Shown: positions 2 to 39,678, numbered from the stretch's first letter. The stretch: 64,000 nt of DNA from an uncultured Planctomycetia bacterium (GCA_964421015.1 CAYQUS010000003.1:41269-105268), one strand, 5' to 3'. The notes: generated by a model from the sequence alone, not told the origin. Numbers and translations: made by a program.

Positions 2-3000
2 GTGGAAACGCTTTTCAAGGCTTTCCATTATCTCTTCAAGTTCCGCGACGCCGACCTTGTGGTAAAGGACGGAATGCTTTATGCCAAGCTCAGAAAGCCT
101 TACCAGTTCTCAGAACTTGAGACGCTCAATACCGGAGACACCATAGTTATGAGCCTCGCTGACGGTAAGGTGCGGCAGATACGTATAGACACCGTTCTTT
201 CGGAGAACGCTGTTGTGTCAGAGGGCAATCTCTGGAAAGAGTTCAATTACGAGCCTTTTGCCGGAAAGGTTGACCTTGGGAATATCTCGAGTGTGCCCGC
301 GGAAGGTTTCGAATCCGGAGTAAGGTCTTACGGCGCCGGCAGCGAAAAGCTGACGGTTACGGAGTACAGCAGAGATAACTGGGAATTTCTGAAGACAAGT
401 TTCACTTTTATAAACGAGCTGGGAGAAGACAGCGTTTCCTTCACTATGGCCGAAACCGAGGATGTCCAGGGCCTCAGCGATCCCCAGAAGACGGTGTGGA
501 TAGACTTTCACGATACGGCGAGAACCACCCGCAAATACGTGGGCGAGCTTGAGATAAGTCCGGAAGGCGCGAAAATAAACCCAACGGTCACGGACAGGCC
601 CATACTCATAGAGGATGTTACGCACCCGGAAGGAAGGCATGACCTGCTTTCCATGAAGAAGTTCGGGATATTCGACGAGAAGAACCCCACTGAACAGAAA
701 TTCTTCGAAATGGACAAAGACGGCAAGATGTTCAGGGGAGTGTCTCTTGAGTTTTCTGATACTTTCGATCATGGGATAGTCGTGGTGTACGAGAGAGTAA
801 AAGACGCCGCGCCGGGAAGCGACGAAATTATGATGCGCAAAACCGAATATGTCGCCGACGGGGTTAGGGATTTTGATGAATACCTCAGAGAATACGCCTC
901 TTCGGGGAATGTCAGCGGCCTTGAATGGATATCAGAAGGAGTCTACGGCATAAGAGAAGGGCTCGACATACAAGGCAAAAAGAAAGAGATATGGGACACC
1001 TACGAGTATCGTCACATGAACGGCGAATATTACACCGTAACCGAGGTCCCCGGTGACGGCACCGATTACGGCGTTGAGACTAAGAGCTACATACAGAAGG
1101 GCCGGAACGTTTTCGGCAGGGAATACGAAAGGTCTTTCACCACGCTTGTCCGTGACAGCAAAGTGATAACCGAGCAAAGTATCCAGTTCCTCGCTCCCGG
1201 CGAAGAATATAAAGACGAGACCGGCTCGCAAAGGACGGATTTCGCGGGAAGGGTACAGACGGCCGTAAAGATGCGTCCCGATGAAGTAACGGATATCGAG
1301 GTCCTCACAGGAGCCGAAAAGGTAGCCCCGGGCGATAAAGCCGAGCTGACCAGAGGCGCTATAGAGATACCCGAAGCCAGTTTCGAAGGGATACCGGAGG
1401 AAGAGAGATTTGTTTTTAGGACAGAATCCAAAGAGATGAGGTTCATAGAGGGTATGCCGCGTGTCGTAAAAGAAGAGACACGTATAACCGACAGCCGCGG
1501 AGAGATACTTTACACGGTTACCACCAATTACCGTTTTGCCTGGGACAAAGGAACGATGGAGAAAGAGTCCACCGAGATACTTGTATACGACAATACAGCA
1601 GATGAAAATGGGGAAAATAAAGACGAGGTCAGGAAGTATGTTGTGGAGTATTCTCCGGAGTACCCCGCCGGCCGGTTCATGGAAAGAGGCCGGTACATAT
1701 CCAGGGACAAGTTCCTTTACCTGGCTTCGGAAGGCAAGGCCGTAAGGAAGATACTTAACTATGTCGACGGTTCCGAGGTGGAGAGAGAGGTGGACCTTTT
1801 CAGGTATGTGGACCGCGATCACCCCTCCATAGACGAAGTTTATGAGACTGAAAGATGGAGCGATCCCGCGGAAGACGGCGGGGCCAGGGAAACGGCTGTG
1901 ATAAGAGTTTCAAGCATGGATAAACGGGGAGTTTCTCTGGGCATGACCGCTTCGGACAGCCGGGTCATTTTTACCGACAATGACGGAAAAGAGACCGCTT
2001 CGGTGCCTTTCCCGCAGGCTGAAGAGGCGACGTTCGAAAGAATAGAAAGTTCCGGAGAGATACGTTCTCTGGACGGGGCTTTACTGGGAAATATCGATCT
2101 CGAGAACGGCATGGTAAACGTTGTTTTCGGCGGGGACCAGGCGGACGGGCCCGGCAAAGTAATAGTGCTTCCCGAAGGCGCTTATCTCGGAAGAAGCGTG
2201 GTAAGGCGCCCTGTAGGGCTTGCGAGCGACGGGAAGACCGTGGAGTTTGAGACCATAACAAGCTCTTTCGGTATATATGATATCACCGGCAAACCTTATT
2301 ACAAGCACACGACCGAGAAGTATCCCGAAGCCGAGGATAAAGCCGAAGCGCACACCATCGTGAAGTACAACGAAAACGATAAGACAATGTCGGAATGGCT
2401 CTACGTTATAGGGGTTTCGTCGGACTCTGACAAGAGGTCGGCCGAACTTAATAACCCCGTGGTTTCCTCAAGGCACGCTCTTACGAGGTATCACGGTCTT
2501 AAGGACGATTTCTACCAGATAGAACTCGAAGAGAAAGACAGGATAAAGCGCGACGCCCTCTCCGGGAGGTATTCCACAGAGGACGACTACCAGACCAGCT
2601 ATGTCTACGACAAGAACGGGTTTGCTTCACAGAGGGATTCAGGGACGCTTCCTCTGGCCAGCGAGACCAAGGTATTCGACCCGGTAACGCAAAGTATGAA
2701 GACAATAGAGGAGAACGTCTATTTTTATAACGAGGAAACCGGAGAAAGGTTCATAGTTGACGTTACGGGTATACTGCCGGCTGAAGTTGACAAGAACGAT
2801 CCCGCGGCAGTTCTAAAGTATCTTGACGAGACCGGCCAGACGGTCACGGTGTTCAGGACGCTAATGCCCATCGAGATGCAGTTCGAAGCCGAGCAGTGGA
2901 GGACAACGGTTTCCGAGAAAGAAGGTAAGATCTCGGTGAACTATACCGATCCCGGGGCTTCGCTTGAGCTTCTAAGGATAAAGCATCCCGACAGCGAACA

Positions 3001-6000
3001 CTTTGGCGGGACCTACATAACCGTTCTTCTTTCCGGTAAAGCCGGAGCCTATGAGGTAGAGGGAGTTTTCATGGGTAAAGGCGTGCATCTCTTTTACGGA
3101 GTTGCCGGTAAAAAGAGGGTAAGAGAAGGCGAAGAGCTTCCTAAAGATATAGTTACGATAGATCCCGTGACAGGACAGGTTCTCGGAGTAAGAGAAGATG
3201 TGCTTGAGGGATGGAAGGAAACAAGGAGCGTTTCGTTCGCCTATGATAAAGGCGATGAGACTGTGGTGCTTAATATTCCCGGTGTTATGAGTTCGGATGA
3301 GCTGGGTATACCCAACCCGGACAGGGGCGACGGGGTTTTCTATCTGCAGAAAAAAGTGCGCATGCCCGACGGGCAGGTGGCTTTTGTAATAGCCGAGTTC
3401 AAGGTGAAACTTAAAGAAGGCCAGACTTACGCTGAGGCTCTGGATGAGCTCGCGGCAAAAAGGAATTCTCTCACGCTCGAGATAGATTTCGAGTCGGCAG
3501 GAAACAGCCTTAAAGATCTCGGCACGCTTGAGTATCTATACTTCCCGTGCCATATGGGAGATGACAAGGCGCAGCTCTACCAGATGAAAATAGAGATGAA
3601 CCCCGACAGGACAATAGGGGACGTGGTAACCCTTAACCCGATGGAGGATTTCAAGGCCGACACGAATAGAGGATGGGAATTCGAATATAAAGAAGAATCC
3701 GCCCCAGGTCTTACGGAAATATCCAAGACAGGCACGGAGATATCTCTCCAGGATGTGGAGATACTAATGGATATAGCGCCGGCGGAACTTCTTCCCAGAG
3801 AATTTTCCATCTGGGGCGAAGAGACAATGAGATGGGTAAAGACCCCGCAGCCGGAAGGCGACGTAATGGTCGAATACTTCAAACCCGGCCAGACCAAGGC
3901 GTTTAAGGTGACGTGGGAGATAGGTGAGAATGAGGAAGCGAAAGCGCTTGTTGAAGGCGCTCTGGCAGGTCTTCCGGAAAACAGTATTTTCGGGAAAGAC
4001 GCTGATAAAAAAATAAAAGACGTGGTATACACGTTTGCCAAAGAAAACAATATAACAGATAGCGCTCTTCTTGCTCAGGGCCTTGAAAGAGCTATCGAGA
4101 TGGAAAAGGTTTTTGAAGAGGTGCTGGGCAGAGAGAGCGGGACACTGGCGTCTTCAGTATCTCCGGAGTCAAGGCCGGCTATGGCCAGCAGCGTTCTGTA
4201 CTGGACCGGTAAACTGAGTGTTCAAAAAGATGCCTCAACCGGGGCTGTTACAGGATTCAGCCGGATAGGAAGATCTCTTGGGAATAGGGCTATTCAGATG
4301 AAACCGGCCGTGGTAAAAGCCATGCAGGATCTTTACACCAAATACGGTTCTGATGCCCAGAAGGAAGGAATAGCGGCATTCACGACAGCTGGAACCGGCG
4401 AAGAATTGGTCGTGCTTGATATGGCAATATCACTCGCGGCGACAGATATAACTACGGACAGAGCAATGAAAGATCCTGCCCAGGTGATAAGCGCCGCAGA
4501 TATGCTTTTTGACGGCGAAAGTTATGATAGGGCAGAGCAGGGTATTTTATCTGATCTCAGAAAAGCCGCGGTGAAAGAGTTCCAGGGTATTCTCGATGGA
4601 ACTATAGCCCAGAGCCTTTCGGTAACGATAGAGTCTTTTATGAAGGGTAAGGTGCTGGCAGAAGCTGAAAATCTGGTGGAAGCCATACAGAACAAACCGG
4701 CGGATGCCGATGAGAGCGTAGAGAAAGGAATTGAAATATGGAAGAAGGTGGTGCGTACTTACTATGAGGCTTACGGCGATATTCTCTTTTCGGAGTTTGT
4801 CGATAATAGAAGAAAAGCGCCTAACATGTACGCTTTCCACGCGCAGGACCTTAAGAGCAAAGTGACTGAAATACTTGAAGAAGCCGGAATGGAAAACCTG
4901 GCTTCCGAAATAACGCCGGAGATAAAAGTGCCGGAAGTTAAGCCCGAAGAGGCGGCTCTCAGTATTTCTCTGGATGAGATGGGTCTTAATATACGTCCGG
5001 AGGCCCTTACTCCGAAAGTTATTTTGTCTGAAAATGAGGATTTGAACGGTAAAGGCGCCGTTTATTTCTACGCCAGTAACGAGACTTCTGAAGAAGCTCC
5101 GGGTACGCGTAACTTAGCGGGTAAAACGGTTACTGTTACCGGGAAAATGCCGTATCAGGCAGACCCCGACTCTCCGATAGTGATAGCCCTTACCGATACC
5201 AACGGCAATACCATGGCCGCCACGGCGACGGTGGGCGAGGACGGAAATCTTACGGCGGTATTTGAAAAAGTGCCGGCAAGCGAAGATTTTGACGGAACCA
5301 GCGTTGTTCTTATGGAAACAAGGTTCGCTATGGCGTCGACGACCCCGCCTGTTTGGTCGGTTATGGGAATAATGGTTGCTTATATGTTCGCCAGTTTCAT
5401 GTTCATGGTCGTTAGAAAAGTCCGAGGGTACGGTAAACTTTTGCGTTTGTCTAAAGCAGGGGCGGAGCTAAAAGCAAAAACCCCTATACCGATGACAGGC
5501 TTTATAGCCGATTTTATAAGGGACCTGGGCTATGCGTGGAGAAGCGACCGCTCTTTCACTGGGGCGGCGTTCAAGGTATTTTTTATTGGATTGTTTAATA
5601 TATTTAGAGGAAAACCTGCCGAGAAAAAAGAGGAAACTAAAAAAGTTAAGGAAGAGGAAAAAACAGAAACTACTGCAACCGACACAGCCAGGGAAAAAGC
5701 TTCACTTCAGCCGTTGGAGACAACGAAAGATGCCGAAGAAACAGCCGTACCCGCCGCTACCACCGAGGCTGTAGAAGAAGTTGCTATTGAACCGGCACCG
5801 GTAACCGAAGAAGAGATCCAAACCGAAGTCGATATGGAGTTAGTACATCTCGGTGTAAAAGAGATGGCGCATGCCATAAGGGGCTGGGTAGACGATATTA
5901 AGGTCGATTTCAGAATGATAGGGATTCAGCAGGAAGAAGCCGGCATATTTCTGCCTTTTATGAGGTCTTCCGAAATATGGGAATTCTCGGACTATGCCGC

Positions 6001-9000: not shown

Positions 9001-12000
9001 AGATATCTCCGATAGTTTAAGATTTAACATAAAGCAGAAAGGCATCCTTAAGCGCCAGATGCGTTATTTCGTTAAGCATAACCTTAAAACCCTGCTCGAA
9101 ATAACCGAAAAAGATCCAAAACTCTTCTCAACCGGAATGTTGTTTGAATATATAAAAGAACAGGTCAAGGCAGGAAGGTCTCTCCTTGAAGACAAAGAAA
9201 TGAGGGAGCTTCTCAATCTTTACATAGTTCTTTGTAATATGCCCGGTTATGGTGAGGCCGCGACTGAGTACATAAAGGGAACATTGACCAAAGATGCTTT
9301 CGTGAAAGAACTTATTAAAGGAGAGTTCCGAAGGGTTAATGAACCCAAGAACGGGCAGGGTCGTCTTGCTAAAATAACTAACGCTCTCGAATTTGCCGGG
9401 CCGGATAAGGGTGCGGGGTCGCAAGGTTCGGTAGCGGCTTTTATGTACGGTGAGTATGCCAGCTGGTATGATCCGGGCTGGTCCGGTTTCATGGCCTCTC
9501 AGGACACTTTTAAACCGCTTGGCGGAACCACGGGATATTTCTGTACAGAAGTTATAGAGGAAATAGACTGGCAGGACCAGGACGTACAGACAAAATTATC
9601 TTTTACGGCCGAAGAAAATGATATAGTGAAACAACATTATGTTACAAAGAATAAGCTCCTTGCCATAGGAGCATGGGACGAATTCCAGGTTGCCGAAGAC
9701 TATATGCTTGGTTTCGTAACATGGTGGTACGGCTTTAATATAGCCGGTTTTATGAGTTTAACTCCCGAGAACCCTGCGGGTTTCGAGGCCGAGGTTGGCT
9801 ATAAGTTCAGGCCCAAACAGCTTTCCCGCTGGATAAAGGGGTACAATATCGGCCTTGTTGTTCTTACGGAAAACTGGTCAAACGTAAGTGAACTCTGGGA
9901 AAGAAAGGGCTGGTGGGGTTTCTTTGTTTTTCTTGTCCCCACTCTTTCAAGCGCTGTAAACCCGCTTCTTTTTATAGCGGCAAGGTTCATAACACAGCTT
10001 TGGTGGATATTCTTCGTACCGGTAGAAACAATAAGAACGTTTCTTGTCAATATTACCTTTATGGACGCCGGCAGTTATATTCAGGGTATGCTGCAGGCTA
10101 CCCAGTTAGATACGCTTCTTCTGAATTTTCAGGATTCAGTTGTATGGTTCATAACAGAGAACCTTAACTATCTTGACTGGTCGCTTGGAGCTCCGATAGT
10201 TGTTCTTCCGTTCGCTCTTCACGCCTATTTTACCTTGCGCGGAATATTTAGAGGAGTAGATAACCGTCTGGGGATGGAGCGTATACTGGCCGAACATGAC
10301 GAGCTGCTTGAGGATGCCCAAAAAGCAGATCCAGCTGTTGTAAAAGAAGTAGAGGACAGGATCAAGGCTATAAAGGAGGGAAGTCTAGAAGAAGTTCCGG
10401 GGCTTGTTTCCCCGAAACCTTTCATTCTCGCGGCAAGCGCTCTAATAGGAGCGTTCGTTACAATAATCGCTATGCCGTTTATTGTTTCATCAGGTGTAAC
10501 ATTTCTTGCGGGTGTAGGAGTATGGGTAGCGGTTAGCCTTATTATATCACTCGGGGTAAACAAATTAACCAGATGGTATGTAGACAGCGCGGTCAAGAAG
10601 AAAGCGAATAAAACGCCCGAGGAAGAGGCTGCGGAAAAAGAAGAAAAAAGTATTCGCGCTATGGCAGTGAGAGCCGGTTCGGCCAATCTCTTTATAGCTT
10701 TTTATCATGCTACCGTGTATCTCCCCGGGAATACAATGGCGTGGTCCGAGATAATAAGCGGCGGCCGAACGGGTTATTGGTGGAGAACTCCTCGAGTTGT
10801 AGGTCAGATCGCTCAGGTCAAAAAAAGGCAAGATAGGAAGTTCGCTTTAGGCGAAGCTAAAATTGCAGAATTTCCTAAGCCGCAAAAAGAGGATAAGGTC
10901 GCAGAAGATGAGTTTATAGAAGCCTTCAAGGAAAAAATGACCAAGGATGAACTTATAGAAAGAGATTTGGAACATACGAGGCTCTGGACACGCCTTATTT
11001 ACGGCTGGGGTTTTGTGGGAGCCATGCTTCTACTTGTGGCTTACAACTTCAGGATGAATTTAAGGGACCAGTTCATAACATCTATCGTCTCGCCGTTTAT
11101 GAGCGGCAGCGCGCCGACTACTTATATCTATCAGCTGGCGTCGAGTAATCCTCTTATTGCTTTAGGGATAGTAGCCGGATCTATCGCCATGGCAGGCCTT
11201 CTTTTCGCCGTAAGTCGTTCTAGAGGCCGTTCGGCTGTGCCTGAGGCGTCAAGGCAGGAAACTTTAACTCTTGAACCGCGAACGGAAGAAGAAGTTATTC
11301 CCGAAACCGGAGAAGTTAAGTCCGAGGCGCCGGTAGCACCGAAACCAAAGGTTCCGGCTGTCGGTATAGGCATTGAAGTTTCTGAGGAAGAGGGAGCTCT
11401 TCTTGAAACATTTGAAACACTTGAAGAAATCCAGGCCAAAGTGAATATAAACACCGCCACTCTGGAAGAACTCCAGACAATACCCGGCGTAGGCCCGGTC
11501 TTGGCCGAGCGTATATTGGAATACCGCCAGACAAATGGGGATTTTGAAAGCATAGAGGATCTTCTTAAGGTCAGCGGTATAGGAGAGAAAAAGCTGGAAA
11601 GTATAAGGGAGTACGTGGACATTCCCCTTGAGCTTCCTGCCGCGAGCCACGCAGTACCGATATCCAATAAAGTAGGCATTCCTATAGGGTCTATAGCCAT
11701 GCTCTTCGGTGCCGCTATTCTCGCTTCAATGTCAGCCGGTGCCGAAATGACCGGAGATGCTCTGCCAACAAAGGGCGCACGCCTTTTTGCGTCGATATCA
11801 GGTGTAGAAATAGCTCTTGTAGCCGGGGTTATTGCTCTTCTGGTATACGGAGCGATAAAATTGCGTAATTATTCAAAGGCAAACGCTCTAAAGTTGAGTT
11901 ATAAAGGTTTTTCAGTTCCTATGTCGATAGCGATTCCGCTCAGTAAACTTGTTAGAAATTCTGAAGATAGAGCGGCAGTGATGGATATGATAAATCGGAC

Positions 12001-17329: not shown

Positions 17330-17340
17330 CGCATACGAAT

Positions 17341-17383
17341 ACACATTAGTGCCAGGCACCTATGGTGCCTGGCACTAATGTGT
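17341..17383. repeat. 43-nt perfect palindrome (REP-like / terminator-like), copy 1, 12 nt after the ORF1 stop
   Basis: acacattagtgccaggcacc-tat-ggtgcctggcactaatgtgt, with 20-bp arms. Confidence 0.9.
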
Positions 17384-17643
17384 GATAAGCGTCATTCTGA
17401 TGCCCCGATAGGGGCTGAAGAATCTAGAGGCATTAGATCCTTCACTTCGTTCAGGATGACGGAGAGAAGTCAGCTTAAAGAAGCCACCTTGCGCGCGGCA
17501 AGTATTTCCCGGCCGCCTCAGGTGGTTTCGTGGTCTCTGGGATAGAAAAAGGTTTTCAAAAAATGGATCCTGTTGAATATCAGGTACTTGTTGATCTCAA
17601 TAAAGCGCTTTTACGAGTATTGCAGGCAGCTTAATTAACGAAT

Positions 17644-17685
17644 ACACATTGGTGCCAGGCACCATAGGTGCCTGGCACCAATGTG
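17644..17685. repeat. Palindrome copy 2 (variant, loop inverted: ..caccATAggtg..)
   Basis: acacattggtgccaggcacc-ata-ggtgcctggcaccaatgtg. Shares 5' flank cgaatac with copy 1 and 3' flank aaaaagttag with copy 3. Confidence 0.85.
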
Positions 17686-30197: not shown

Positions 30198-30389
30198 TGG
30201 GGACATTGGTGTCTCCTCTGTATTAGATCCTTCACTTCGTTCAGGATGACAAGGGGTGATGTGCAGGGATGACGAAGTGAAGAGGTGGAGAAATGACGAG
30301 AAGTGTAGGGAAGGCCAGGGTTAAAAAGCAGCAAATTATAAGGTTTCAGTAGACTTTAGTTAAGATACAAAAAATTCAGAATTGATTAG

Positions 30390-30418
30390 TTGACTACATA
30401 TTGCCGCTACTGTATAAT
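30390..30418 (+). promoter_or_regulatory. Consensus sigma70-type promoter of the 3043 aa giant gene
   Basis: TTGACT (30390-30395), 17-nt spacer, TATAAT (30413-30418), ~130 nt upstream of ATG 30547. Confidence 0.6.
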
Positions 30419-30546: not shown

Positions 30547-33500
30547 ATGATGTCTTTAAAAATTAAGAACTCATTTTTAGGGAAAGTTTCCGCTATCTTT
30601 CTGATAGCGGCATTTTCTTTTTACAACTGCGACATAAGTTCCGCCGTTACCCAGGCGGAAATAAAGTCGCCGGGTTCCGCGTCCGATAATTCCGTTCTCT
30701 CTGTGGAGGATATCGGAATAGCCATAGACGCGGGCACGATAAGGTCGAAGTTTGCCGGCCAGACCGGCAAGACCATAGTGCACATACAGGACGCCCATTG
30801 TAATTTCGAGGCCCAGAGCAACATAAGCCGCATACTCGAACAGCTTTCCAGGGATTCAGGCATAGCGATGATATCAGTAGAAGGCGCCGAAGGAACGGTT
30901 GATACGGCCTGGTTCAGAGCCTTCCCGGACGCCGAGATCCGCAGGGAAGTAGCCACCTATTTCATGAAGAAGGGCGAAATAACCGGAGCGGAATTTTTCT
31001 CCATAAACTCGGATTATAACGGCACTATTTTCGGGGCGGAAACAAGAGACTACTACGTGCAGAACCTTAGAGCCTTCCTCGATATGTACCCCTACAAAGA
31101 AGCTATACTTTCTTATTTCAACGATCTTAAGTCCGCCGGCGAAAAACTGAAGTCTATAATATATCCTCCGAAACTCAGGGAGCTCGACAGGAACGCGCAC
31201 AATTTCGAAAGCAAGGAGATGGACCTGAGCAAGTACGCGGAATATCTGGTAAAGGCTTCCGCGGAGAACGGGGTAGATACCGCCGGTTACGCCAACTTTA
31301 AAAAACTCACAGACACTCTCGAGTATGAGAAGAAAATAGATTTCGACGTAGTGGACGGTGAAAGGGCCAGGTACATAGACGCTCTTTCCAAGATGCTTTC
31401 CAAAGAGGAAATGGCCGACCTTGTGGCAGAGAGCATAAAGTTCAAGAAGGGTTACATAAAAGCCGTTGATTTTTATTCGCATCTCAGGGACCTGGCGAAG
31501 GCCCACGATATACCGATGATGCAGGAATACCCCAACCTTTTTTATTACTACATTTACTCCAAGATATACGACGGCATAGACATAGAAGGCCTTTTCAGGG
31601 AAATAGATCTTGTGGAAAGAGCCGTGAAAAAGAAGCTTATAAAGGATGAAACGCAGGACAAGCTCGACAAACTTTCAGAGAAAGTCGAAAAACTCATAGG
31701 GCTTGTGAATATCGAACTTACCAACGACGATTACGACCGTTTCAGGAAAATAGCCGACGCTTTTACACTTGACGACGTAGTTTCTTTTTATGACGGTATG
31801 GCCGGCAGATACAACCTTGATTTCTCCCTGGGGGAAGTTCCTTCGGTTGTCAGAGAGAACATGCCCAAGATGGTGGATTTTTACGAGATAGCGATAAAAC
31901 GCGATATGGCCCTTGTTGAGAACACCCTGGCCCAGATGGAAAGGGAAGGCAAGGACAGATCGGTCCTTATAGCCGGAGGTTTCCATACAAGAGGTATGGC
32001 CGATATACTGGAAAAGAAAGGTGTTTCTTATGTGGTTGTCACCCCAAAAATAACTAAAGATGTCGAGTCTCCCTATATACAGGTACTTACCAACCAGAGA
32101 ACTTCAATTGAGGACATAATTACCGAAAGCGCCATGCCCGGGACAAAGAACGAGAATGTCTCTGCCGGCGAGAACGCTGGTGGGCTTTTGTCTCCTCTTC
32201 TCAGGTTCGGTTGGGGAATTACCATGCTTCTGGACGACAACCAGAAGGCTTTGCTGCAGTCGGTTTCGGATGAACTTGGCAAGGTGGACGGCGGGGCCAA
32301 GTTCGAGGACGCCGTAAAGGAAAGTTTTAGAACTACTGTAAGAATGATGGCCGACAGGTGGCTTTCTACCGTAAAAAGCAATATGGTGGAACGCCTTGGG
32401 ATGGATGAAGATAAAGCTGAGGAGGAATTTCTTAAATTCGCGAATGACGACAGCCTTTGGGCCATGCTTCAGTCTGTCTATGTCGGCAAATACGACGATT
32501 ACTTCAGGTCGGTCAACAGAGTAGCTTCCCCAGCGGTGAAGGCGCAGATAGTGCTGGCGTTTAGTGAATATCGCAACGGGTATCTGGCTCGCGGTGAAAT
32601 AGGTGAAGGGGATGGCGCCGCCCAGAGCCCCGGACGCCAGAAAGCGGGCGACAGGGTGCTTAAAGACAACGATGAAATAAAGAATTTTGACCAGATAATA
32701 AGGTTCAGTTTTGATTCAGGAAAAGCCAATGAGGAAGCTTTCAGGGTTTCCGGGGTTTTCGGCCCGGAAATAGACGGAAAGTTCAGGTTTTTCGCACACG
32801 ATGGCTTAAACTCGTCGCTTGAGACCGCCGGGCTTCCGGCAAACGTTCACCCGGGCCGTGGCGGCGAGGCTAAGATGCACCAGGCCTATCAGGCCCACAT
32901 GGACAAATATGTTTTCGATAATCTTACCGACGCCCAGAGAACCACTCTGGCAAGACATGAACTTGCCCATCTTGTAATAGCCAACGCCGAAGATATAGCC
33001 TACAAAGAAAGAAAGGATTACAAGACCAGGGGAGAGGTAGAGCTAACCATAGAGGGCAGGCTCGGAAGGCAGGCTTTTAACACCTGGAAAATGTGGGAGA
33101 AATTCGTGGAGAGAGAATTCTCCGGGAATTTCCAGAGGTACAAGGACCGCGCTCTTTCTGAACAGGAAATGGAAACTCTGGCGGAGCTCCAGGAAAGGTT
33201 CGTCAACAGCCTTCCAAATTCCGACGTAACCGGTGTAGTGGCCAGGATGAACGCGATATCCGAGGCGAAAAAAGCGTCGGATCAGAAGGCTCTTAGAGAA
33301 ACGCTCCGTAAACACGCCAAAGAAATGTCGACTTCCGTAGCTGACGAAAAGGGTCCGGACGTAGTCATAGTGGTGTCTTCTACCGACGACCTGGCGGATT
33401 TCTGGCAGAAAAGGCTTACCTGGGATGGTTTACATGGTTCAGGCGCGGTAGTGAAAAAAAGTTCCGTGGTGTTGTCAGTTTCCGAGACCAACTGGACAAA

Positions 33501-36500
33501 AGGCGCCGGTAACGGACTTGGCACGCTTAATGGTTTTATAAGGGCCGCCAGAAAAGCCCAGGATCTCAATATCATAGAGACAGATGTTCCTTCTGGCAAA
33601 GTTAACCTTACTCAGGACGACATAAACAAGCTCGCGGACGCTTTCAGCGCCTATCTTAAGAGGGGCAACAAGAGCGCTTTTATGTTCCATACCGCCGGAA
33701 AAGGCACACGTACGGCGCCTCTTCCCGGAGTGGAAGGCAATTCCAAACCCAATATCAAGCTTCCCGAGATGGTTGATGTAGGCGGGGTTATGCAGCCCAT
33801 GACCATACTCGAGGGTGTCATGAAGGCTATAAGCAGATATGCGGATACAAGAAAAGGCCGTCTGGGTGTTTTCTGGGGAGACCAGGTCATTATAAACCAG
33901 AACCCTGTAGGCGACGAGGCGCCCAAACATCACGTCGAGATATTCGGGCAGAACGTTCCATTGGATGAAAGCATACAGTCTTACGGTGTTCTTATAGCGG
34001 GTGACCAGCCGGGCGACGCCATGCAGAGGGAAAAGCTCCCGATGAAAGAGGTCGAGGACCTGCTCAAGGCCAGCAACAAAGGACCCGACGAGGTATATAA
34101 GAGCATAGGTTCGTTCACTATATCAAACGATTTTCTCATGGCGCTACTAAAAGACAATGTTGCGGGTTCCGAGAAGAGCCTTGAGTCCACGAAAGGCAGT
34201 CTTGATACCGACCCCGACTGGTGGCAGCCGCTTACATCGTCGCTTGACGAGTACAAGGCCATGATGGCGAAAAAGAAAAAGTCTCCGGCGGTCGCTGAAG
34301 CTCAGTGGAACAAGATGAACGCCCTTTGGAACAATTTTAACAGCCAGGGGAAGGGGAAAATAGGCGTTACCGACGTGGGTAAGGATTCGCTCTGGTGGGA
34401 TTACGGCCAGAACAAATACTACCTTAGGAACATGCAGATACTCACAGAAAAGGACACAGTCGACGGAGTTTCCTCGAGAGAATTTTTCGGTATAGACAGC
34501 TGGATAAAAGGTTCCACGCTTGGTGACGCTAACGACGTTTCCGATACAGAAAAGAGGTTCACATCCCAGGCGCTGGCGGAAGGCAGAGCTGTCGGGGCAA
34601 AAGACGGCAAGAAATATCTGGATATACAGTCTTCTGTCGTACAGAACTCTACGATAAAGAGCGGGCGCCTTAAGAACTGCGTTGTAATAGACAGCTACCT
34701 GGAGAATGTTGACGCCGAGAACGCCGTGATAATAGGAAGCACTGTGTTCAAGCTTAACGCTAAAGGCGCTCTTGTATACAATGTGGTGAATGACGAAGTT
34801 CCGGCGCTTACTGAGGGCCAGATACTGACCAACGTTTTCCATCCCACGGTCGGTCGCATACAGATGCAGATGAGGACAGATGTTTCCCGTGACGGCAGTG
34901 TCGACTGGGAACAGGAGGTTTTTGTTTACGACAATCTTTATACTTACGCCGACGTCGCAAAACTCATGGCAGAGAGCGGTATTACAATGGACGTCATAAA
35001 GATTTTAAGAGATAACGCGGCCAGGGCGCTTATTGAGAGCCGCGAAGCCAGTAATACAAGGAGCGCTAACGAACTTAAGAATGATCTGCTTACCAGCAGG
35101 AACAAAAAAGCGGGGACGCTAAAGACCAAAGCTCTTGAACTTAAATCAAAGGCCGAAGGCGTTCTCAGGGAAGACCCGAAAGGCAATGTAAGGTCCATAC
35201 TGAGGGAAGCGGGGCTTAACGAACTTTGGGCCGCCAGGGCGGAGCTCGACGAACCCGAGGCCAGAAAGATAGTAGCTTACAGCATTATGGTCACCGAGGG
35301 CAGGACCTCGATGGACGTAGCCGAATACATGGAGATGTTCGCTATGGTGCCTAACCCGGCAAACATCCGCGCGGCCGAAGAGGAACTGGTCGCCGTGAGA
35401 AAACTGGTGGAGCTCTCAAAGGTGGACCGCCGCAAGTACTACGCCCAGCAGGAACCTCTGGCTTTCGGTACAAGCGGCCTTAGGGACACAGTTGAAAGAC
35501 TTACCGATATGGAAGTTTACATAAACGCCCGTGGCTTTATCAGATATCTTATCGAGCAGGGAGAGATAGTTGACGGTGACTCTGTTGCCATAGCGGGAGA
35601 CTTGAGGCCGAGCACACCAAGGCTTATGACGGCTGTGGCCAGGGCTATAGAGGACGAGGGTCTTGCTAACGGATATTCGCTTGGAGTGGATCTTAGGGGA
35701 TTCCTGCCGTCGCCCAGCGTGGCTCTTGACGGTTTTATCGGCAAGAAACCCAGCGTTATGGTGACCGGCAGCCACATACCGGCCGACAGGAACGGAATAA
35801 AGTTCAACAAGAAGAGCGGAGAAGTTCTTAAACAGGACGAGAAAGGCATACTTTCTAAAGTCAAGGAGGCAAGGGCCGAAGAGACCGCGCTTGACTGGCA
35901 GGTAACATTGTTCGATCAGGCCGGGAAGTTTAAGGACGCCCCGGTTTATGCGCTTCAATCCGGGCAGGATGAAAGTATAGAGGTTTTCGTCAATAGGTAT
36001 ACCAGCGTTTTTGGTACGGAAGCTCTTAAGGACAAAAAAGTGTTCATATACCAGCATTCAGCTGTCGGAAGGGACATAATTTCCGACATATACAGAAAGC
36101 TGGGAGCTACTGTGATAACTCCCGGAGTAGATGAATTTGGCGGGTACATAGAAGGTAAAGAAGAAGACAACATAATACAGGTTACGTATACCGACGAAAA
36201 AACCGGTAAGGAAGTAACAGAGAATGTGAATCTTCGCAGCGAGGAGTTTGTCCCGGTGGATACGGAGAAAGTATCCAATAAGACAAAGGCCATACTCAAA
36301 GCTGTTGCCGCGAAGTACGCTCCGGACGTTATAATATCCACTGACGGAGATTCTGACAGGCCGCTTTTTGTGGACGAAGAAGGTAACTTCCTTGTTGGTG
36401 ACAAACTTGGTCTTCTTGCTGTTAAATTCATGGTGGAAAATGCTCAGAAACCCGCCATGGTGGCTTTACCGGAAAGCACTAATGAGGGAGTAGTAGCCGA

Positions 36501-39500
36501 GCTTGAAAGTATGGGGATAAAGGTGATCAAGACCAAGATAGGTTCGCCGCATGTCATAAAGGCCATGAACGACTGGACACGTCCCGGCAGGGGGCATGAG
36601 AACGACATAGTATGCGGTTGGGAAGCCAACGGAGGTTTTCTCCTGGGCAGCGACATAAAGTTGTTTGACAAAGATTTAAGGTCTCTTCCGACACGCGACG
36701 CGGTGTTCCCGACACTTTCCGGTATACTTTTGTCCGGGATAAAAGGGGTGTCAGTGAAGGAGCTTATAGAGAAGGAGACCCCGGCCGTGTATAACGGCGC
36801 CGGTGTTTTTGACGATTTCCGTGATAAGGACGGCAAGAAACTTACGGGTAACGCCGGGTTCGGGCTTATGAAGGAAACCATGGCGAAGTTCTCTCCCAAA
36901 CTCGAGGATCAGACGATCGTAAGGGTTAATTTTGATAAGAACACTGTTATTCGGAGAGTACGGGACGAAGAGGCAGGAGAAGAAATAGCCGACAAGTATT
37001 TCTTTGAGACAGTGGAACAGAATATAGACACTCTTAGTCCGGCGGATCTTGCTGAAATAACAAGGGTCAAGGACCTTTTTGGTAAAAACATCCTTACTAA
37101 GGAAAGAGGGTTCGAGCCTATAGCGTCCATAAGTGTTCTTGACGGTATCAAGATATTTTTCAGTAACGGCGAAATATCGCATTTCAGGCCTTCCGGGAAC
37201 GCTCCTGAGTTCAGAAATTACACGACAGCGGCGACACAGGAAAGAGCCGACGCGATGCTGGCCGTAGGACTGAAGGAGTTGGTGCCCTCTATGGTCACAG
37301 AGACATTAAACTCGCCTTCGGGAAGCACCGAGTTGCCGATATGGTCGCCCGGAAGACAGGCCGCGACGGCGACGCCGGCCTCTCCTGAAGTACAGGAAGT
37401 GGCCGATCTTTTGAGGCAGGGCTACCCGGCCATGATAAAGCCGCACAAGGAAGCCAAGGTATGGGGTGTTAATGGCATAGGAGAATATTGGTACGGCGCC
37501 GAAGCGGGAGACAAGACTTCAGTTGTTTCCGTGCGCGACGCCAATGGTAAAACGGTCGAAGCTCCGCTCAATGAGGTTTTAAGCTACGCTCCGGATGTTT
37601 TGGGCAAGGACGCGCTTGATAATTTCGGACAGATGCTGCCGCTTGTAAAGATACTTACGCCCCAGGGCAGGTTGTCGGCCCAGTTCCACGATGCCAAGAA
37701 CGAGCTATGGATAGTTACCGGGATAGATCCCAAGGTCCAGAACCCCTCTATAATACTCGGGTTCAGCAAGGCTTCTGTGGACAGGTTCGGCAGCGCGGTC
37801 AATTCTGAATATAAGAAAGCTCTGGAAAATTACGGCGAGAAGCTTAACGCTCTTATAGACGCCGCTGAAGATATTGGTATCACGCAGGCTTTCCAGGGGG
37901 ACATACTCGAAAAGGCTAAGGATTACCCCGCCATGGGAAGTTATGTGGCGGAACTCGAGTCGGCGAAAGGTGAGCTGGAATGGTTCTATAACTACAGGCC
38001 TGTTAAGGTTGGAGAGGTTATACCTGTTCCGGCCGGCACTTTACACGCTCTTGGAACAGGTGTGGAGGTAGTAGAACCGCAGATAGCCGGTCTTACGCAG
38101 TCTCTGGAAGACGGAGCTACTTATCCGGTGAGGTACTATTTCCCGGGGCATGAAAGGCCCGGCGCTCAGAAACAGCTGGATATAGACAGGGTAGGAGAGA
38201 TGATACCCGCTGTGGCGGTAGAGACCAGCCCGGAAATTATTTCCGAACAGCCGAACGGTGAAAAGGTCGAGAGGCTTCCGGGAAATTTCGAGTCCAAGGG
38301 GCTTGAGGTTAACAGGATAACGGTAAGAAAAGACGCCGCCTCGACCGGGACCTTCAGGATAGGCAGCATGGAGAGCATACACAATCTGGTAGTGGTCAAG
38401 GGTGAAGCTTCGGTGCTTGTGGCCGGTCAGAGGATCAAAATACCCGCCGCCAGGGCCGGAGAGCCAATGATGATGATACCGCCGACGGCGGGACAGTACA
38501 CCATAGTAGCCGATGCCGACGGTGACAGCGAGATCATTCTTACGCTGACCCCGAAAGCCGAGAAGTGGAATCTTGAGACTCCTGTTGAGAAGGGTTCCGG
38601 AGTGAGCATAAACGGCGAGATGGAGTACGGATATGAGGTGACACCCAGATTCCTGGAGTTTGAGACAATGGTCGATGTCAGGGACGAGGTGAACATACAT
38701 GCCGGGCAGAAGGCTGAAAGTTCTCCGATCATAGCCGGAAGAGCCCATAAAATAAAGGTTCTGGACGGAACGGTAGTAGTGACGCGTTCTACTGGCGAGG
38801 AAGTTGTGGTGGCCGCGGGAGAAGAGTTCCTTGTTGATGAAAACTATTCCAACGTAAGCCTTCTTGATCCGGGCCGTTATGAGATAGTCAATAGAGCCGA
38901 TCTTCCCGCGAAAGTTGAGGTTTCTTACAGCCTCACACAGGAAGAAAAAGTGGCATACGAGACCATCTCTACGCTTAAAAAACATATACCTGTCATAAAA
39001 GGCAAGAAGATAAGGGCGCATGTTCCAAACGAGATCTTCCCGAGCGGCGGTAAAACAGTGGTAGGGTCACGCCTTTGGACGCAGGAGATAATGCAGAATC
39101 TTCTTGGCCCCGACATAATTCTCGCCGGATACGATTCCGCGCTTGGTTTCAGCAGGCTCAAGACCAGCAGCGAGGACGATGTAGTGGAGATCCTTATAGC
39201 CGACAACAAGAAACTGGAAGCCGAGAAGGAAGTTAAGGGGTCGGAAGAGTTCCTCAAGAGCGTAAGGGTCCTGCCGATACCGGAGAACGCCCTTAGCCAG
39301 AAAGGCGGATGGGATTTCTGCCTCGAGGTGGTGGGTTGGTCCATGATACTTGGCGCCGTGGGTCCGGAACAGATACGCGATAAGGCCGATCTTACAAGCC
39401 CTGCCGCGGATATGCATAAGTTCCTGACGAAAGTCCTCAAGCGCCAGGTGGAAAGGGAACACCTTTTCCTCATGCTTTCTTTCAACGAAGCCAACACGTA

Positions 39501-39678
39501 TCTCAGCGGTCTTTCTGAGGACGAAAGGACAGCCATACAGGAGAAGATAGGCGATGTCAGCGATGTCGTGACATGGATGAAGAACCTTGTTAAGAACATA
39601 TTGTTCCAGATGCCGATAAGGCCGTTTGACCCTGCGGACACGCTCCGTCAGAGGCTCAAAGTAATGTGGTCGGCATAA
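30547..39678 (+). CDS. Giant 3043 aa exported protein. Signal peptide, Tiki/TraB-like N-domain paralogous to previous gene, HExxH motif, then fused sugar-1-phosphate nucleotidyltransferase (fucose/mannose-1-P guanylyltransferase-like with left-handed beta-helix) + phosphoglucomutase/phosphomannomutase + type-I phosphomannose isomerase (cupin), ~330 aa C-terminal unknown region
   Basis: RBS aagggga + ATG 30547. Consensus promoter TTGACT-N17-TATAAT at 30390-30418. 'TIVHIQDAH' (30772-30798) and 'GGFHTRG' (~31975-31995) parallel the previous gene. 'HELAH' at ~32950-32975. 'DVVIVVSS', 'FMFHTAGKGTRTAPL' (33680-33725), LbH 'RLKNCVVIDSYLENVDAENAVIIGS' (34660-34800). 'FGTSGLRD' (35464), 'TGSHIPADRNGIKF' (35761), 'DGDSDRPL' (36343) mark a phosphohexomutase. 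'QFHDAKNELWIVT' (37681) and 'PVPAGTLHALGTGVEVVEPQ' (38041) mark PMI type I. Confidence 0.8.
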   Translation: MMSLKIKNSFLGKVSAIFLIAAFSFYNCDISSAVTQAEIKSPGSASDNSVLSVEDIGIAIDAGTIRSKFAGQTGKTIVHIQDAHCNFEAQSNISRILEQLSRDSGIAMISVEGAEGTVDTAWFRAFPDAEIRREVATYFMKKGEITGAEFFSINSDYNGTIFGAETRDYYVQNLRAFLDMYPYKEAILSYFNDLKSAGEKLKSIIYPPKLRELDRNAHNFESKEMDLSKYAEYLVKASAENGVDTAGYANFKKLTDTLEYEKKIDFDVVDGERARYIDALSKMLSKEEMADLVAESIKFKKGYIKAVDFYSHLRDLAKAHDIPMMQEYPNLFYYYIYSKIYDGIDIEGLFREIDLVERAVKKKLIKDETQDKLDKLSEKVEKLIGLVNIELTNDDYDRFRKIADAFTLDDVVSFYDGMAGRYNLDFSLGEVPSVVRENMPKMVDFYEIAIKRDMALVENTLAQMEREGKDRSVLIAGGFHTRGMADILEKKGVSYVVVTPKITKDVESPYIQVLTNQRTSIEDIITESAMPGTKNENVSAGENAGGLLSPLLRFGWGITMLLDDNQKALLQSVSDELGKVDGGAKFEDAVKESFRTTVRMMADRWLSTVKSNMVERLGMDEDKAEEEFLKFANDDSLWAMLQSVYVGKYDDYFRSVNRVASPAVKAQIVLAFSEYRNGYLARGEIGEGDGAAQSPGRQKAGDRVLKDNDEIKNFDQIIRFSFDSGKANEEAFRVSGVFGPEIDGKFRFFAHDGLNSSLETAGLPANVHPGRGGEAKMHQAYQAHMDKYVFDNLTDAQRTTLARHELAHLVIANAEDIAYKERKDYKTRGEVELTIEGRLGRQAFNTWKMWEKFVEREFSGNFQRYKDRALSEQEMETLAELQERFVNSLPNSDVTGVVARMNAISEAKKASDQKALRETLRKHAKEMSTSVADEKGPDVVIVVSSTDDLADFWQKRLTWDGLHGSGAVVKKSSVVLSVSETNWTKGAGNGLGTLNGFIRAARKAQDLNIIETDVPSGKVNLTQDDINKLADAFSAYLKRGNKSAFMFHTAGKGTRTAPLPGVEGNSKPNIKLPEMVDVGGVMQPMTILEGVMKAISRYADTRKGRLGVFWGDQVIINQNPVGDEAPKHHVEIFGQNVPLDESIQSYGVLIAGDQPGDAMQREKLPMKEVEDLLKASNKGPDEVYKSIGSFTISNDFLMALLKDNVAGSEKSLESTKGSLDTDPDWWQPLTSSLDEYKAMMAKKKKSPAVAEAQWNKMNALWNNFNSQGKGKIGVTDVGKDSLWWDYGQNKYYLRNMQILTEKDTVDGVSSREFFGIDSWIKGSTLGDANDVSDTEKRFTSQALAEGRAVGAKDGKKYLDIQSSVVQNSTIKSGRLKNCVVIDSYLENVDAENAVIIGSTVFKLNAKGALVYNVVNDEVPALTEGQILTNVFHPTVGRIQMQMRTDVSRDGSVDWEQEVFVYDNLYTYADVAKLMAESGITMDVIKILRDNAARALIESREASNTRSANELKNDLLTSRNKKAGTLKTKALELKSKAEGVLREDPKGNVRSILREAGLNELWAARAELDEPEARKIVAYSIMVTEGRTSMDVAEYMEMFAMVPNPANIRAAEEELVAVRKLVELSKVDRRKYYAQQEPLAFGTSGLRDTVERLTDMEVYINARGFIRYLIEQGEIVDGDSVAIAGDLRPSTPRLMTAVARAIEDEGLANGYSLGVDLRGFLPSPSVALDGFIGKKPSVMVTGSHIPADRNGIKFNKKSGEVLKQDEKGILSKVKEARAEETALDWQVTLFDQAGKFKDAPVYALQSGQDESIEVFVNRYTSVFGTEALKDKKVFIYQHSAVGRDIISDIYRKLGATVITPGVDEFGGYIEGKEEDNIIQVTYTDEKTGKEVTENVNLRSEEFVPVDTEKVSNKTKAILKAVAAKYAPDVIISTDGDSDRPLFVDEEGNFLVGDKLGLLAVKFMVENAQKPAMVALPESTNEGVVAELESMGIKVIKTKIGSPHVIKAMNDWTRPGRGHENDIVCGWEANGGFLLGSDIKLFDKDLRSLPTRDAVFPTLSGILLSGIKGVSVKELIEKETPAVYNGAGVFDDFRDKDGKKLTGNAGFGLMKETMAKFSPKLEDQTIVRVNFDKNTVIRRVRDEEAGEEIADKYFFETVEQNIDTLSPADLAEITRVKDLFGKNILTKERGFEPIASISVLDGIKIFFSNGEISHFRPSGNAPEFRNYTTAATQERADAMLAVGLKELVPSMVTETLNSPSGSTELPIWSPGRQAATATPASPEVQEVADLLRQGYPAMIKPHKEAKVWGVNGIGEYWYGAEAGDKTSVVSVRDANGKTVEAPLNEVLSYAPDVLGKDALDNFGQMLPLVKILTPQGRLSAQFHDAKNELWIVTGIDPKVQNPSIILGFSKASVDRFGSAVNSEYKKALENYGEKLNALIDAAEDIGITQAFQGDILEKAKDYPAMGSYVAELESAKGELEWFYNYRPVKVGEVIPVPAGTLHALGTGVEVVEPQIAGLTQSLEDGATYPVRYYFPGHERPGAQKQLDIDRVGEMIPAVAVETSPEIISEQPNGEKVERLPGNFESKGLEVNRITVRKDAASTGTFRIGSMESIHNLVVVKGEASVLVAGQRIKIPAARAGEPMMMIPPTAGQYTIVADADGDSEIILTLTPKAEKWNLETPVEKGSGVSINGEMEYGYEVTPRFLEFETMVDVRDEVNIHAGQKAESSPIIAGRAHKIKVLDGTVVVTRSTGEEVVVAAGEEFLVDENYSNVSLLDPGRYEIVNRADLPAKVEVSYSLTQEEKVAYETISTLKKHIPVIKGKKIRAHVPNEIFPSGGKTVVGSRLWTQEIMQNLLGPDIILAGYDSALGFSRLKTSSEDDVVEILIADNKKLEAEKEVKGSEEFLKSVRVLPIPENALSQKGGWDFCLEVVGWSMILGAVGPEQIRDKADLTSPAADMHKFLTKVLKRQVEREHLFLMLSFNEANTYLSGLSEDERTAIQEKIGDVSDVVTWMKNLVKNILFQMPIRPFDPADTLRQRLKVMWSA

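Follow-up and report, generated by a model that had tools for sequence, protein, structure and literature searches.

The window analysed here, a stretch of 64,000 nucleotides from a genome submitted as that of an uncultured Planctomycetia bacterium (GCA_964421015.1, CAYQUS010000003.1:41269-105268), carries a genuine and conserved tandem array of three giant genes, called A, B and C, of an Omnitrophota bacterium. The next two genes downstream are called D and E, and all five lie on the + strand. B and C are built as a constant frame, made of a Sec-type signal peptide, a domain of the TIKI/Ere/ChaN/TraB fold (hereafter the N-domain) and a constant C-terminal module. Between these constant ends a variable cargo is inserted, consisting of metabolic enzymes that, to judge from their motifs, are intact. 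Giant mosaic proteins of Omnitrophota are a published phenomenon, to which this locus belongs as a well-resolved new example and not as a new kind of system. The coordinates of all features are collected in Table 1.

Three consecutive giant open reading frames (ORFs) had been proposed in an earlier reading made from the sequence alone, and they are present where and at the lengths at which it placed them. The probabilities of such stop-free runs, given the base composition of the window, are so low (log10 P of -135 for A, -96 for B and -71 for C) that the ORFs cannot be due to chance. Moreover, the codon-position GC content and the first-position purine bias of all giant segments are those of the ordinary downstream genes of the window; no in-frame stop is found in the giant ORFs, against 60-280 in the other two frames, and there are no tandem DNA repeats inside them. 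The other ORFs of at least 150 aa within 1-39.7 kb (23 in number) are all on the minus strand beneath the giant ORFs, a few of them overrunning the ends by some bases, and are thus shadows, as the sequence-only reading had also held. The ORF of A opens at the window edge without a signal peptide, which indicates that its 5' part is cut.

Homologues of the array point consistently to one lineage. A search with the first 700 aa of B gave 13 proteins, and the 11 with a named source are all 'partial' proteins of Omnitrophota metagenome-assembled genomes (MAGs). When one genome per species was queried with an 8-sequence alignment of the shared N-domain, 182 relatives were found in the species-representative genomes; the 77 loci kept, among them those of Ca. 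Tantalella remota, Ca. Aadella gelida and Ca. Omnitrophus magneticus, all come from Omnitrophota-type MAGs, some of which bear the submitter label 'uncultured Planctomycetia'. A 372-aa fragment labelled Candidatus Omnitrophota is, furthermore, 100% identical to gene D. Taken together, the labelled homologues and this fragment support the link to Omnitrophota that had earlier been offered as an inference, and the frame family was detected here only in that phylum. Among related loci with a sufficient length of DNA, nearly all have an ORF of more than 3000-4000 aa that begins with the N-domain. The 10 kb upstream are occupied by another single same-strand ORF in about 25 loci, and some related contigs carry two or three copies, 30-40 kb apart.

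The search for syntenic giant genes recommended with the first reading was also productive. An A-like gene is followed by a B-like gene in one related locus (L001); the syntenic A homologue of GCA_028710465.1, upstream of a B-like gene, reaches 11,719 aa. C has full-length homologues (2750-3930 aa) in at least 12 clusters, which align with its N-terminal as well as its C-terminal part, and several of them, P0149 for example, remain collinear with C along almost all of its length. In the related contig L081 (JGI 3300077567) the order is C-orthologue (3321 aa), D, E, permeases, GH113, CBM, GH113 and ROK. As these collinear homologues come from independent assemblies, the giant genes are not assembly chimeras. 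An exact look-up of C in public assemblies gave no record. A metagenome scan for the A-B-C order of the closest relative, in a collection that does not include its contig (JGI Ga0643578_0000103), gave a best match of 45% identity.

The N-termini of B and C, the two visible in the window, start with a positively charged stretch, a hydrophobic core and a small-residue cleavage-like site, a pattern that is kept across aligned homologues and agrees with the signal peptides predicted earlier. The N-domains that follow are paralogous (blastp of B 3-515 and C 7-517, 2e-56, 26% identity) and have a parallel beta-sheet core flanked by helices, as in solved members of the TIKI/Ere/ChaN/TraB group. Their candidate catalytic set comprises D79-x-H81, E109 and H478 in B numbering, with E109 placed 28 residues past H81. 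Conservation of these positions reaches at least 90% among 15 sequences or is complete in the alignment of 8, and the motifs occur in 12 of 12 C-family giants. The N-domain is predicted to carry a hydrolase active site. The core fold and the set of catalytic residues are common to the TIKI/TraB/PrgY/ChaN/erythromycin esterase superfamily, and the His-to-Glu spacing of 28 is identical to that of Bcr135 and of RRSP, the TIKI-fold protein that provides the 2His/2Glu reference motif (PMC6254334). The effectors HopBA1 and RRSP are among the structural neighbours of the N-domain. It differs from the superfamily, however, in a helical insertion of about 300 aa between core strands and in its first acidic residue, which is Asp and not Glu; in addition, it is recognised by no Pfam or NCBIfam model and is fused to proteins of several thousand residues.

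The ATG of B is preceded by a GGAG-containing purine-rich stretch 4-13 nt upstream. Behind its N-domain lies a complete glutamate dehydrogenase (GDH), in which both Pfam domains score above their cut-offs (6e-50 and 3e-26, 170.6 and 92 bits) and which matches PDB 2tmg at 1e-56. Its substrate (Lys) and dinucleotide-binding motifs (GAGKGG, GGGKG, GVITGKP, G-x-GNVG and NAGGVTVSY) recur unchanged in two orthologues that are 42-44% identical overall. Farther on, B contains the ATP-grasp and phosphohistidine swivel domains of a pyruvate phosphate dikinase (PPDK), which match PDB 1kbl residues 15-538 at 5e-49 as well as Pfam PPDK_N and PEP-utilizers and keep the His motif intact (GGRLSHAASIAR). The C-terminal module, with a mean column identity of 49% and a conserved ...REVLIKA end, also terminates giant ORFs of 11 other loci and has no PDB or Pfam match. 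No C-terminal module common to A, B and C was detected by BLAST or phmmer; with hhalign the tail of A gave an E of 0.0025 and a probability of only 12% against the B-type module, though both end in RE(I/V)L..A, and the tail of C gave no match.

There are also shorter orthologues of B that combine the N-domain, GDH and the same C-terminal module, as in the 3160-aa ORF of Ca. Tantalella remota (L010). Behind the N-domain, the middle of B included, conservation among the relatives is lost, and a GDH region is present in just four of their loci (L010, L014, L086 and L109). Two of these orthologues (L010, 12452-14713, and L014, 6063-8276) carry after GDH a conserved region of about 300 aa with a P-loop (GPVAVGKA) that is missing in the B of the window, a further case of cargo that differs between orthologues.

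C has, after its N-domain, an HPG...HExxH segment whose HExxH is kept near aa 760-835 in 11 of 13 C-family proteins (C itself and 12 homologues), with H, P, G, H, E and H invariant in an 11-sequence alignment. It is followed by a region resembling D, which keeps all invariant motifs of the D family, HTAGKGTR included, and whose nucleotidylyltransferase fold is taken from the D model. Next comes a region resembling E. Its phosphohexomutase part (aa 1635-2100) shows Pfam domains I-III, matches PDB 4hjh at 2e-59 and bears the motifs SVMVTGSHIP and DGDSDR; the TGSHIP phosphoserine loop and the DGDSDR metal loop are kept in 10 of 12 C-family giants. The part resembling a phosphomannose isomerase (PMI; about aa 2170-2669) has weak Pfam PMI matches, as does E. 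No hydrophobic segment is seen in C after the signal peptide in hydropathy windows. One C-family protein of 3927 aa (P0160) has an extra phosphofructokinase domain at aa 752-1120 besides the phosphoglucomutase (PGM) and PMI-like region.

The matches to D and E indicate that the cargo of C is a diverged duplicate of the free genes immediately downstream. In a related contig (L083, GCA_041667545.1) the gene before D and E has only 1250 aa, which correspond to C 1-851 (at 58% identity) followed directly by C 2788-3042 (at 35%). This short C, together with the 42% identity of the inserted regions to D and E, shows that C grew by insertion of a copy of the neighbouring D-E pair between its constant ends. 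From these comparisons we infer that giant genes of the B/C family become larger by taking up copies of adjacent genes inside their constant ends.

For A, a membrane protein, many transmembrane segments are predicted: hydropathy windows show about 20 or more between aa 1786 and 5386. Its ComEA-type helix-hairpin-helix (HhH) domain is well supported (Pfam HHH_3 1e-23, 83.5 bits; PDB ComEA 8dfk 7.5e-17) and, with 72.7 bits against a cut-off of 53.1 for TIGR00426, has the tandem helix-hairpin-helix organisation of that model. Towards the C-terminus follows a phosphoenolpyruvate (PEP)-binding domain, found with Pfam (5e-25 to 6e-26) and with PDB Enzyme I (1.4e-16), with the intact motifs GVGLVRTEYMY, FRTFD, IMFPMV, GIMIE, VGSNDLT and MGICGD. 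Cys5233 is the catalytic-type Cys of this domain, which holds two of the six cysteines in the 5775 aa of A. No match was found for aa 1-3000 in Pfam, NCBIfam or PDB; for aa 1-1200 (window 2-3601), where the coding signature is normal, a word-indexed search of 5.8 billion proteins gave no homologue.

No PEP-binding domain was found in B, and this is the only one of the three PPDK domain types present in A, so that ATP-grasp, phosphohistidine and PEP-binding domains do not occur in one polypeptide: the parts are split between B and A, and the catalytic His or Cys is kept in each. The PEP-binding domain of A would thus complement the PPDK half in B. Across A and B, all three domain types of PPDK, PEP synthase and Enzyme I of the phosphotransferase system are present with the catalytic His and Cys, although, unlike in those enzymes, each part is embedded in thousands of unrelated residues. 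The motifs kept in the GDH, PGM, D-like, PPDK and PEP domains speak for selection on catalysis, and the cargo enzymes look intact, with their catalytic residues kept. These Pfam and PDB matches are in keeping with the mosaic of exported or membrane regions and core-metabolism enzymes that had been described from the sequence.

The free gene D has no Pfam match, and sequence models stay below significance. Its AlphaFold2 model, built with 41 homologues (predicted local distance difference test score, pLDDT, 89.6), comes closest in Foldseek to the part of Bacteroides FKP that acts as GDP-fucose pyrophosphorylase (5e-11) and also matches the pyrophosphorylases of ADP-glucose and GDP-mannose (GMPP). 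An HTAGKGTRL loop of the G-x-G-T-R-(x)-P-L type is present, and the model combines a nucleotidyltransferase fold with a left-handed beta-helix, so D is predicted to be a sugar-1-phosphate nucleotidylyltransferase-like protein. Besides Omnitrophota, Chlamydiae, Lentisphaeria and a large number of eukaryotic algae (diatoms, Ectocarpus and a Euglena-like transcript) have members of the D family (homologues P0015-P0133, about 540 aa), with about 30% identity.

E matches Pfam PGM_PMM domains I-IV over aa 1-530, and its aa 520-948 give a TIGR00218 manA match of 9.7e-7, below the cut-off of the model, along with the weak Pfam PMI matches already mentioned; PMI domains are also borne by distant relatives and by one C-family giant. 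The overlap between D and E and their order are kept in L081-L083, so each is a gene in its own right and the pair did not arise by a frameshift within one fused gene. From the domain identities, D and E, and likewise the middle of C, look like three consecutive steps of hexose activation, presumably from Fru-6-P through Man-6-P and Man-1-P to a nucleoside diphosphate (NDP)-sugar. The mannan-use locus that follows keeps the same gene order after D-E in the three related contigs L081-L083; its two carbohydrate-binding module (CBM) proteins are paralogous to each other.

Fused and free copies of these enzymes differ in cysteine content. Only 6 Cys are present in the 5775 aa of A, 17 in the 4131 aa of B and 5 in the 3043 aa of C, while ordinary genes of the window, secreted ones included, mostly have 0.4-1.4% Cys. 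The D-like segment of C has 1 Cys in 565 aa against 7 in 564 for D, and the E-like region 1 in 1035 against 9 in 948 for E; pooled, this is 2 Cys in 1600 aa of fused sequence and 16 in 1512 aa of free sequence (Fisher p 5e-4). In relatives the median Cys content is about 0.2% for fused E-like segments and 0.74-0.95% for free orthologues, and the C-orthologue of L081 has a single Cys in 3033 aa. The depletion indicates that the fused copies are under constraints unlike those of the free ones, and the presence of free D and E next to C speaks against a plain redundancy of the fused ones.

An envelope-associated, at least partly exported arrangement is the best reading of the array proteins, and from their sequences we give it roughly an even chance of being right. 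A, B and C would be targeted by Sec and stay associated with the envelope; A would form a membrane platform, which B may join through the split PEP-utilising enzyme. The cargo enzymes would be displayed outside the cytoplasm of the producer, in the periplasm, at the cell surface or in a zone of contact with a host or prey, and could work there with the GH113 mannanases, the carbohydrate-binding proteins, the binding protein and the ABC importer on sugars or metabolites derived from polymers or from the host or prey. The N-terminal hydrolase-like modules might process or release cargo, or cut a target. For export speak the signal peptides kept throughout the family, the lack in C of any later hydrophobic segment, the lack of a strong one near the N-domain in 53 of 76 relatives, the free D and E beside C and the Cys depletion of the fused copies; topology surveys of long Omnitrophota proteins came to similar conclusions (10.64898/2026.06.07.730766). 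Several observations weigh against this arrangement. The cargo needs ATP or NTP, NAD(P), PEP and sugar phosphates, which are normally confined to the cytoplasm, and intact cofactor-dependent enzymes in an exported frame are thus a puzzle that has already been raised in the literature. A PPDK shared in two parts by A and B would require both in one compartment. Secretion or pilus genes were not found in the window, unlike in most published giant loci (10.64898/2026.06.07.730766). The topology of A, as drawn from hydropathy only, contradicts itself, because the positive-inside rule puts the HhH loop inside and the analogy with ComEA puts it outside; counts of hydrophobic segments and the positive-inside rule likewise disagree on where the domains of A lie. 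The metallopeptidase-like HExxH segment of C gives a weak profile match to selecase MJ1213 (4qhf, E 0.0014). Finally, other proteins of this locus that are presumably exported (GH113, CBM proteins and the binding protein) are not Cys-poor, so the depletion may reflect protein size and not location.

The need for cytoplasmic cofactors, shared by cargo enzymes that all keep their catalytic residues, favours the main alternative, possible but rather doubtful, namely that the giants are membrane-tethered metabolons facing the cytoplasm. Only the TIKI-fold domain would then be exported, the rest being held inside by weak or unrecognised stop-transfer segments, and in a very small cell enzymes placed beside the sugar importer would channel mannose to Man-6-P and then to Fru-6-P or an NDP-sugar, along with PEP, pyruvate and ATP and with glutamate and 2-oxoglutarate. 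The complementary halves of the PEP enzyme in A and B argue for one ATP-containing compartment, a strong hydrophobic segment lies within 450 aa past the N-domain in 23 of 76 relatives, and B has a weakly hydrophobic stretch followed by the positive block RKTARARKK ahead of GDH. Furthermore, of the long Omnitrophota proteins in the literature, 46% have, by prediction, transmembrane helices, no signal peptide and their bulk in the cytoplasm (10.64898/2026.06.07.730766). A type I topology, with a transmembrane helix right after the N-domain and the cargo inside, was rejected, as only those 23 relatives have such a segment and B and C have none. The hydropathy of C and of the 53 relatives cited above tells against tethering; free, cytoplasmic D and E already give the same activities next door, and a 5-10 fold Cys depletion of the fused copies would not be expected if both kinds shared the cytoplasm. 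That depletion and the conserved signal peptide suit instead, by analogy with MARTX toxins, a secreted multi-effector polyprotein, an explanation we regard as improbable, in which the frame would export or deliver the enzymes into a host or prey to rewire the metabolism of the victim in its cytoplasm, with the TIKI-fold and HExxH modules processing the polyprotein. Constant ends with variable internal cargo and the structural closeness of the N-domain to HopBA1 and RRSP fit this idea, and a predatory or epibiotic lifestyle of Omnitrophota has been reported, as has the proposal that peptidase domains near giant N-termini cleave these proteins (10.1101/2023.11.21.568195; 10.64898/2026.06.07.730766). 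However, translocation repeats, a pore-forming region or a dedicated secretion system were not recognised in the window, a Sec signal peptide carries a protein across the inner membrane only, there is no sign that the organism has a host, and processing is without any indication. Equally unlikely in our judgement is the most novel proposal, in which a cargo-capturing export frame would copy ordinary neighbouring enzymes (GDH, a split PPDK, a hexose-activation pathway), strip them of Cys and send them out active as polyproteins, to act in the cytoplasm of a host or prey or in a contact compartment after release by the N-terminal protease-like modules. An artefact, whether a chimera of the assembly or a run of ordinary genes joined through lost stops or frameshifts, is hardly credible. 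The source is uncultivated and giant ORFs are usually fragmented in MAGs (13 of the 13 matches to the N-domain of B are partial), but C is matched at its two ends by 12 or more proteins from independent assemblies, A- and B-like giants occur in the same order elsewhere and the coding signature is uniform and free of stops; a chimera in particular is largely refuted by the collinear homologues of C, the gene order of L081 and the A-B order found elsewhere. Least probable of all is a bacterial megaprotein of known type, either a non-ribosomal peptide or polyketide synthase or a repetitive adhesin (RTX, Bap or Ig-repeat), which the array recalls only in size and same-strand arrangement: scans with Pfam and NCBIfam, which gave no condensation, adenylation, ketosynthase, carrier or repeat domains, and a scan for DNA repeats rule it out.

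The intergenic DNA around the giant genes holds three copies of a perfect palindrome of 43 nt, found only there, with a stem of 20-21 bp. The sequence-only reading had each gene ending at a palindromic element, which is true of A and C; past B there is only a hairpin of 7 bp that is not significant (z -0.8). No T-tract on the + strand accompanies the palindromes or the hairpin of B. The palindrome looks like a repetitive extragenic palindromic (REP) sequence or an mRNA end-stabiliser rather than a classical terminator. As to the promoter claimed for each gene, the promoter-like site of C matches at 11 of 12 positions; the site of B (TTGAAC-17-TACAAT, 9 of 12) is no better than shuffled sequences, and the claim does not apply to A, whose promoter, RBS and N-terminus lie beyond the window edge. 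An exact 27-nt repeat, TAGATCCTTCACTTCGTTCAGGATGAC, lies past A (17434-17460) and past B (30224-30250), and past C a tandem array at 39848-39942 consists of 3.8 copies of a 25-nt unit whose core, GTCATCCTGAGCC, resembles the reverse complement of the 27-nt repeat; together they constitute a second family of short intergenic repeats. Several short repeats also surround tRNA-Leu (58555-58641, minus strand), smpB (59047-59505) and tmRNA (59609-59989) within 57868-60230: a 74-nt pair, 88% identical, at 57868 and 58829, a micro-array of the TAAGGAGCAAGGAG type at 58749-58814 and GGGGGACACATT(C/T)GGC motifs in both orientations. The tmRNA tag, as predicted by ARAGORN, ends in ...SALAY and not in the usual ...LAA. 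Three ordinary-sized ORFs, at 53435-54391 (-), 57974-58474 (+) and 60469-61179 (+), have no Pfam match.

Table 1. Features of the giant-gene array and its surroundings, in positions of the window (aa, amino acids of the respective protein; dG, folding free energy).
Feature	Position	Strand	Remarks
Giant gene A	2-17329	+	ORF of at least 5775 aa, 5' end cut by window edge
A, ComEA-type helix-hairpin-helix domain	11420-11653	+	aa 3807-3884; hydrophobic segments on both flanks
A, PEP-binding domain (PEP-utilizers_C / Enzyme I C-terminal type)	14849-15781	+	aa ~4950-5260
43-nt palindrome, copy 1	17341-17383	.	12 nt past A stop; dG -42 kcal/mol, z -8.2
43-nt palindrome, copy 2	17644-17686	.	upstream of B promoter-like site
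Giant gene B	17802-30197	+	ORF of 4131 aa, complete
B, TIKI/Ere/ChaN/TraB-fold domain (predicted)	17964-19721	+	aa ~55-640; led by signal peptide
B, glutamate dehydrogenase, complete	19908-21482	+	aa 703-1227; insertion of ~70 aa
B, hydrophobic (transmembrane-like) cluster	23379-23627	+	aa 1860-1942; 3-4 segments; hydropathy windows
B, PPDK ATP-grasp and phosphohistidine swivel domains	26001-27530	+	aa 2734-3243
B, constant C-terminal module	29019-30194	+	aa 3740-4131; ends ...REEVLIKA
C promoter-like site	30390-30418	+	TTGACT-17-TATAAT, 11/12
Giant gene C	30547-39678	+	ORF of 3043 aa, complete
C, TIKI-fold domain (predicted), paralogue of that of B	30724-32136	+	led by signal peptide; IQDAH ... 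EG ... GGFH
C, HPG...HExxH segment, metallopeptidase-like	32839-33036	+	HELAH at aa 804
C, D-like sugar-1-phosphate nucleotidylyltransferase-fold region	33352-35046	+	aa 936-1500; 42% identity to D
C, E-like region, phosphomannomutase/phosphoglucomutase then class I PMI-like domain	35449-38553	+	aa 1635-2669; 42% identity to E
C, constant C-terminal module of the C family	38908-39675	+	aa 2788-3043; occurs in the 1250-aa short C of L083
43-nt palindrome, copy 3	39688-39730	.	10 nt past C stop; dG -38.6 kcal/mol, z -9.3
Gene D, free, sugar-1-phosphate nucleotidylyltransferase-like	40041-41699	+	likely start ATG 40041; ORF opens at TTG 40005
Gene E, free, phosphomannomutase/phosphoglucomutase and PMI-like	41683-44529	+	948 aa; 17-nt overlap with D
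Mannan-use locus	44649-53366	+	two ABC permeases, GH113 with F5/8-C domain, two CBM proteins, second GH113, ROK protein, solute-binding protein (Pfam)

The novelty of the array had been overstated in the earlier reading, as giant mosaic Omnitrophota proteins with PGM/phosphomannomutase (PMM) and PPDK_N domains and carbohydrate genes nearby have already been described (10.1101/2023.11.21.568195; 10.64898/2026.06.07.730766). The 'Archaeovorins' and related proteins of West-Roberts et al. 2023 are encoded by genes of more than 90 kb, exceed 30,000 aa and contain glycosyltransferases, methyltransferases, glycosyl hydrolases, peptidases, NUDIX, HEAT and usually SecA_DEAD domains together with numerous transmembrane regions (10.1101/2023.11.21.568195). 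The window array shares with them the Omnitrophota host, the mosaic build with hydrophobic segments and long unannotated stretches, the PGM/PMM and PPDK_N domains that belong to their less common content, and carbohydrate-uptake genes nearby. Where Archaeovorins have a peptidase-type domain beside the N-terminal signal peptide, B and C have the TIKI-fold domain, and 'cytoplasmic' enzymes predicted to be extracellular pose the same puzzle in both. The giants of the window are, however, much smaller (in thousands of aa, 3.0 for C, 4.1 for B and at least 5.8 for A, whose homologue has 11,719 aa, against more than 30), and their visible parts show in Pfam and NCBIfam no SecA_DEAD, glycosyltransferase, methyltransferase, glycosyl hydrolase, peptidase (C39, S8), NUDIX or HEAT domain. 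By hydropathy windows only, transmembrane segments range from the 20 or more of A through 3-4 in B to none past the signal peptide in C, and the type II secretion, pilus or PilZ genes of Archaeovorin loci do not occur in the window. In the text searched, GDH is not among the domains listed for Archaeovorins (10.1101/2023.11.21.568195).

The catalogue of long Omnitrophota proteins published in 2026 defines a 'multi-enzyme metabolic' class and a sugar-metabolism Pfam module (10.64898/2026.06.07.730766). As at the present locus, that class has PGM/PMM, ROK and other sugar enzymes in long signal-peptide or transmembrane proteins, with glycoside hydrolases in the flanks. Its sequence clustering, however, takes proteins of at least 10,000 aa, well above B and C, and it makes no mention of a TIKI/TraB/ChaN/erythromycin-esterase domain or of a comparison between fused and free paralogues; in the window the flank consists of a locus for mannan import with GH113 enzymes instead of secretion machinery.

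Outside this phylum, MARTX toxins are likewise exported proteins of several thousand residues with constant ends and swappable catalytic modules; they carry the TIKI-fold 2His/2Glu effector RRSP, and proteolytic processing is part of their mechanism (PMC6254334). B and C, on the other hand, lack RTX or glycine-rich repeats, a cysteine protease domain and type I secretion genes; they have an N-terminal Sec signal, and their cargo consists of housekeeping-type metabolic enzymes and not of toxins. The resemblance is one of logic and not of homology. As for the cargo of C, successive steps of hexose activation are joined in one polypeptide in the fucokinase/GDP-fucose pyrophosphorylase FKP of Bacteroides, and bifunctional PMI/GDP-mannose pyrophosphorylases likewise join such steps. 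C differs from these enzymes in holding three activities, as predicted from its domains, in a signal-peptide protein of about 3000 aa with free copies adjoining, and in that the D family has no Pfam model.

Relative to the literature searched, four aspects of the array are new: the TIKI-fold N-domain as the mark of a large family in tandem arrays, the frame-and-cargo build with direct evidence of neighbour-gene capture, the PEP-utilising enzyme split between two giants and the Cys depletion of fused copies. Most documented Omnitrophota giants are too large for study, whereas B and C are small, complete members. A natural control is provided by the same enzymes occurring fused in C and free as D and E, and by the short C of a relative, which is without the insert. 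The N-domain marks a family of at least 182 loci, often in tandem arrays, and Cys depletion is a measurable signature that separates fused from free copies. The paralogue control, the N-domain and this signature together make the question of whether the cargo lies inside or outside the cell testable with ordinary constructs. Were the cargo-capturing export frame to prove true, it would represent a new class of 'metabolic effector' delivery and would explain the presence of 'cytoplasmic' enzymes in the predicted extracellular parts of giant proteins.

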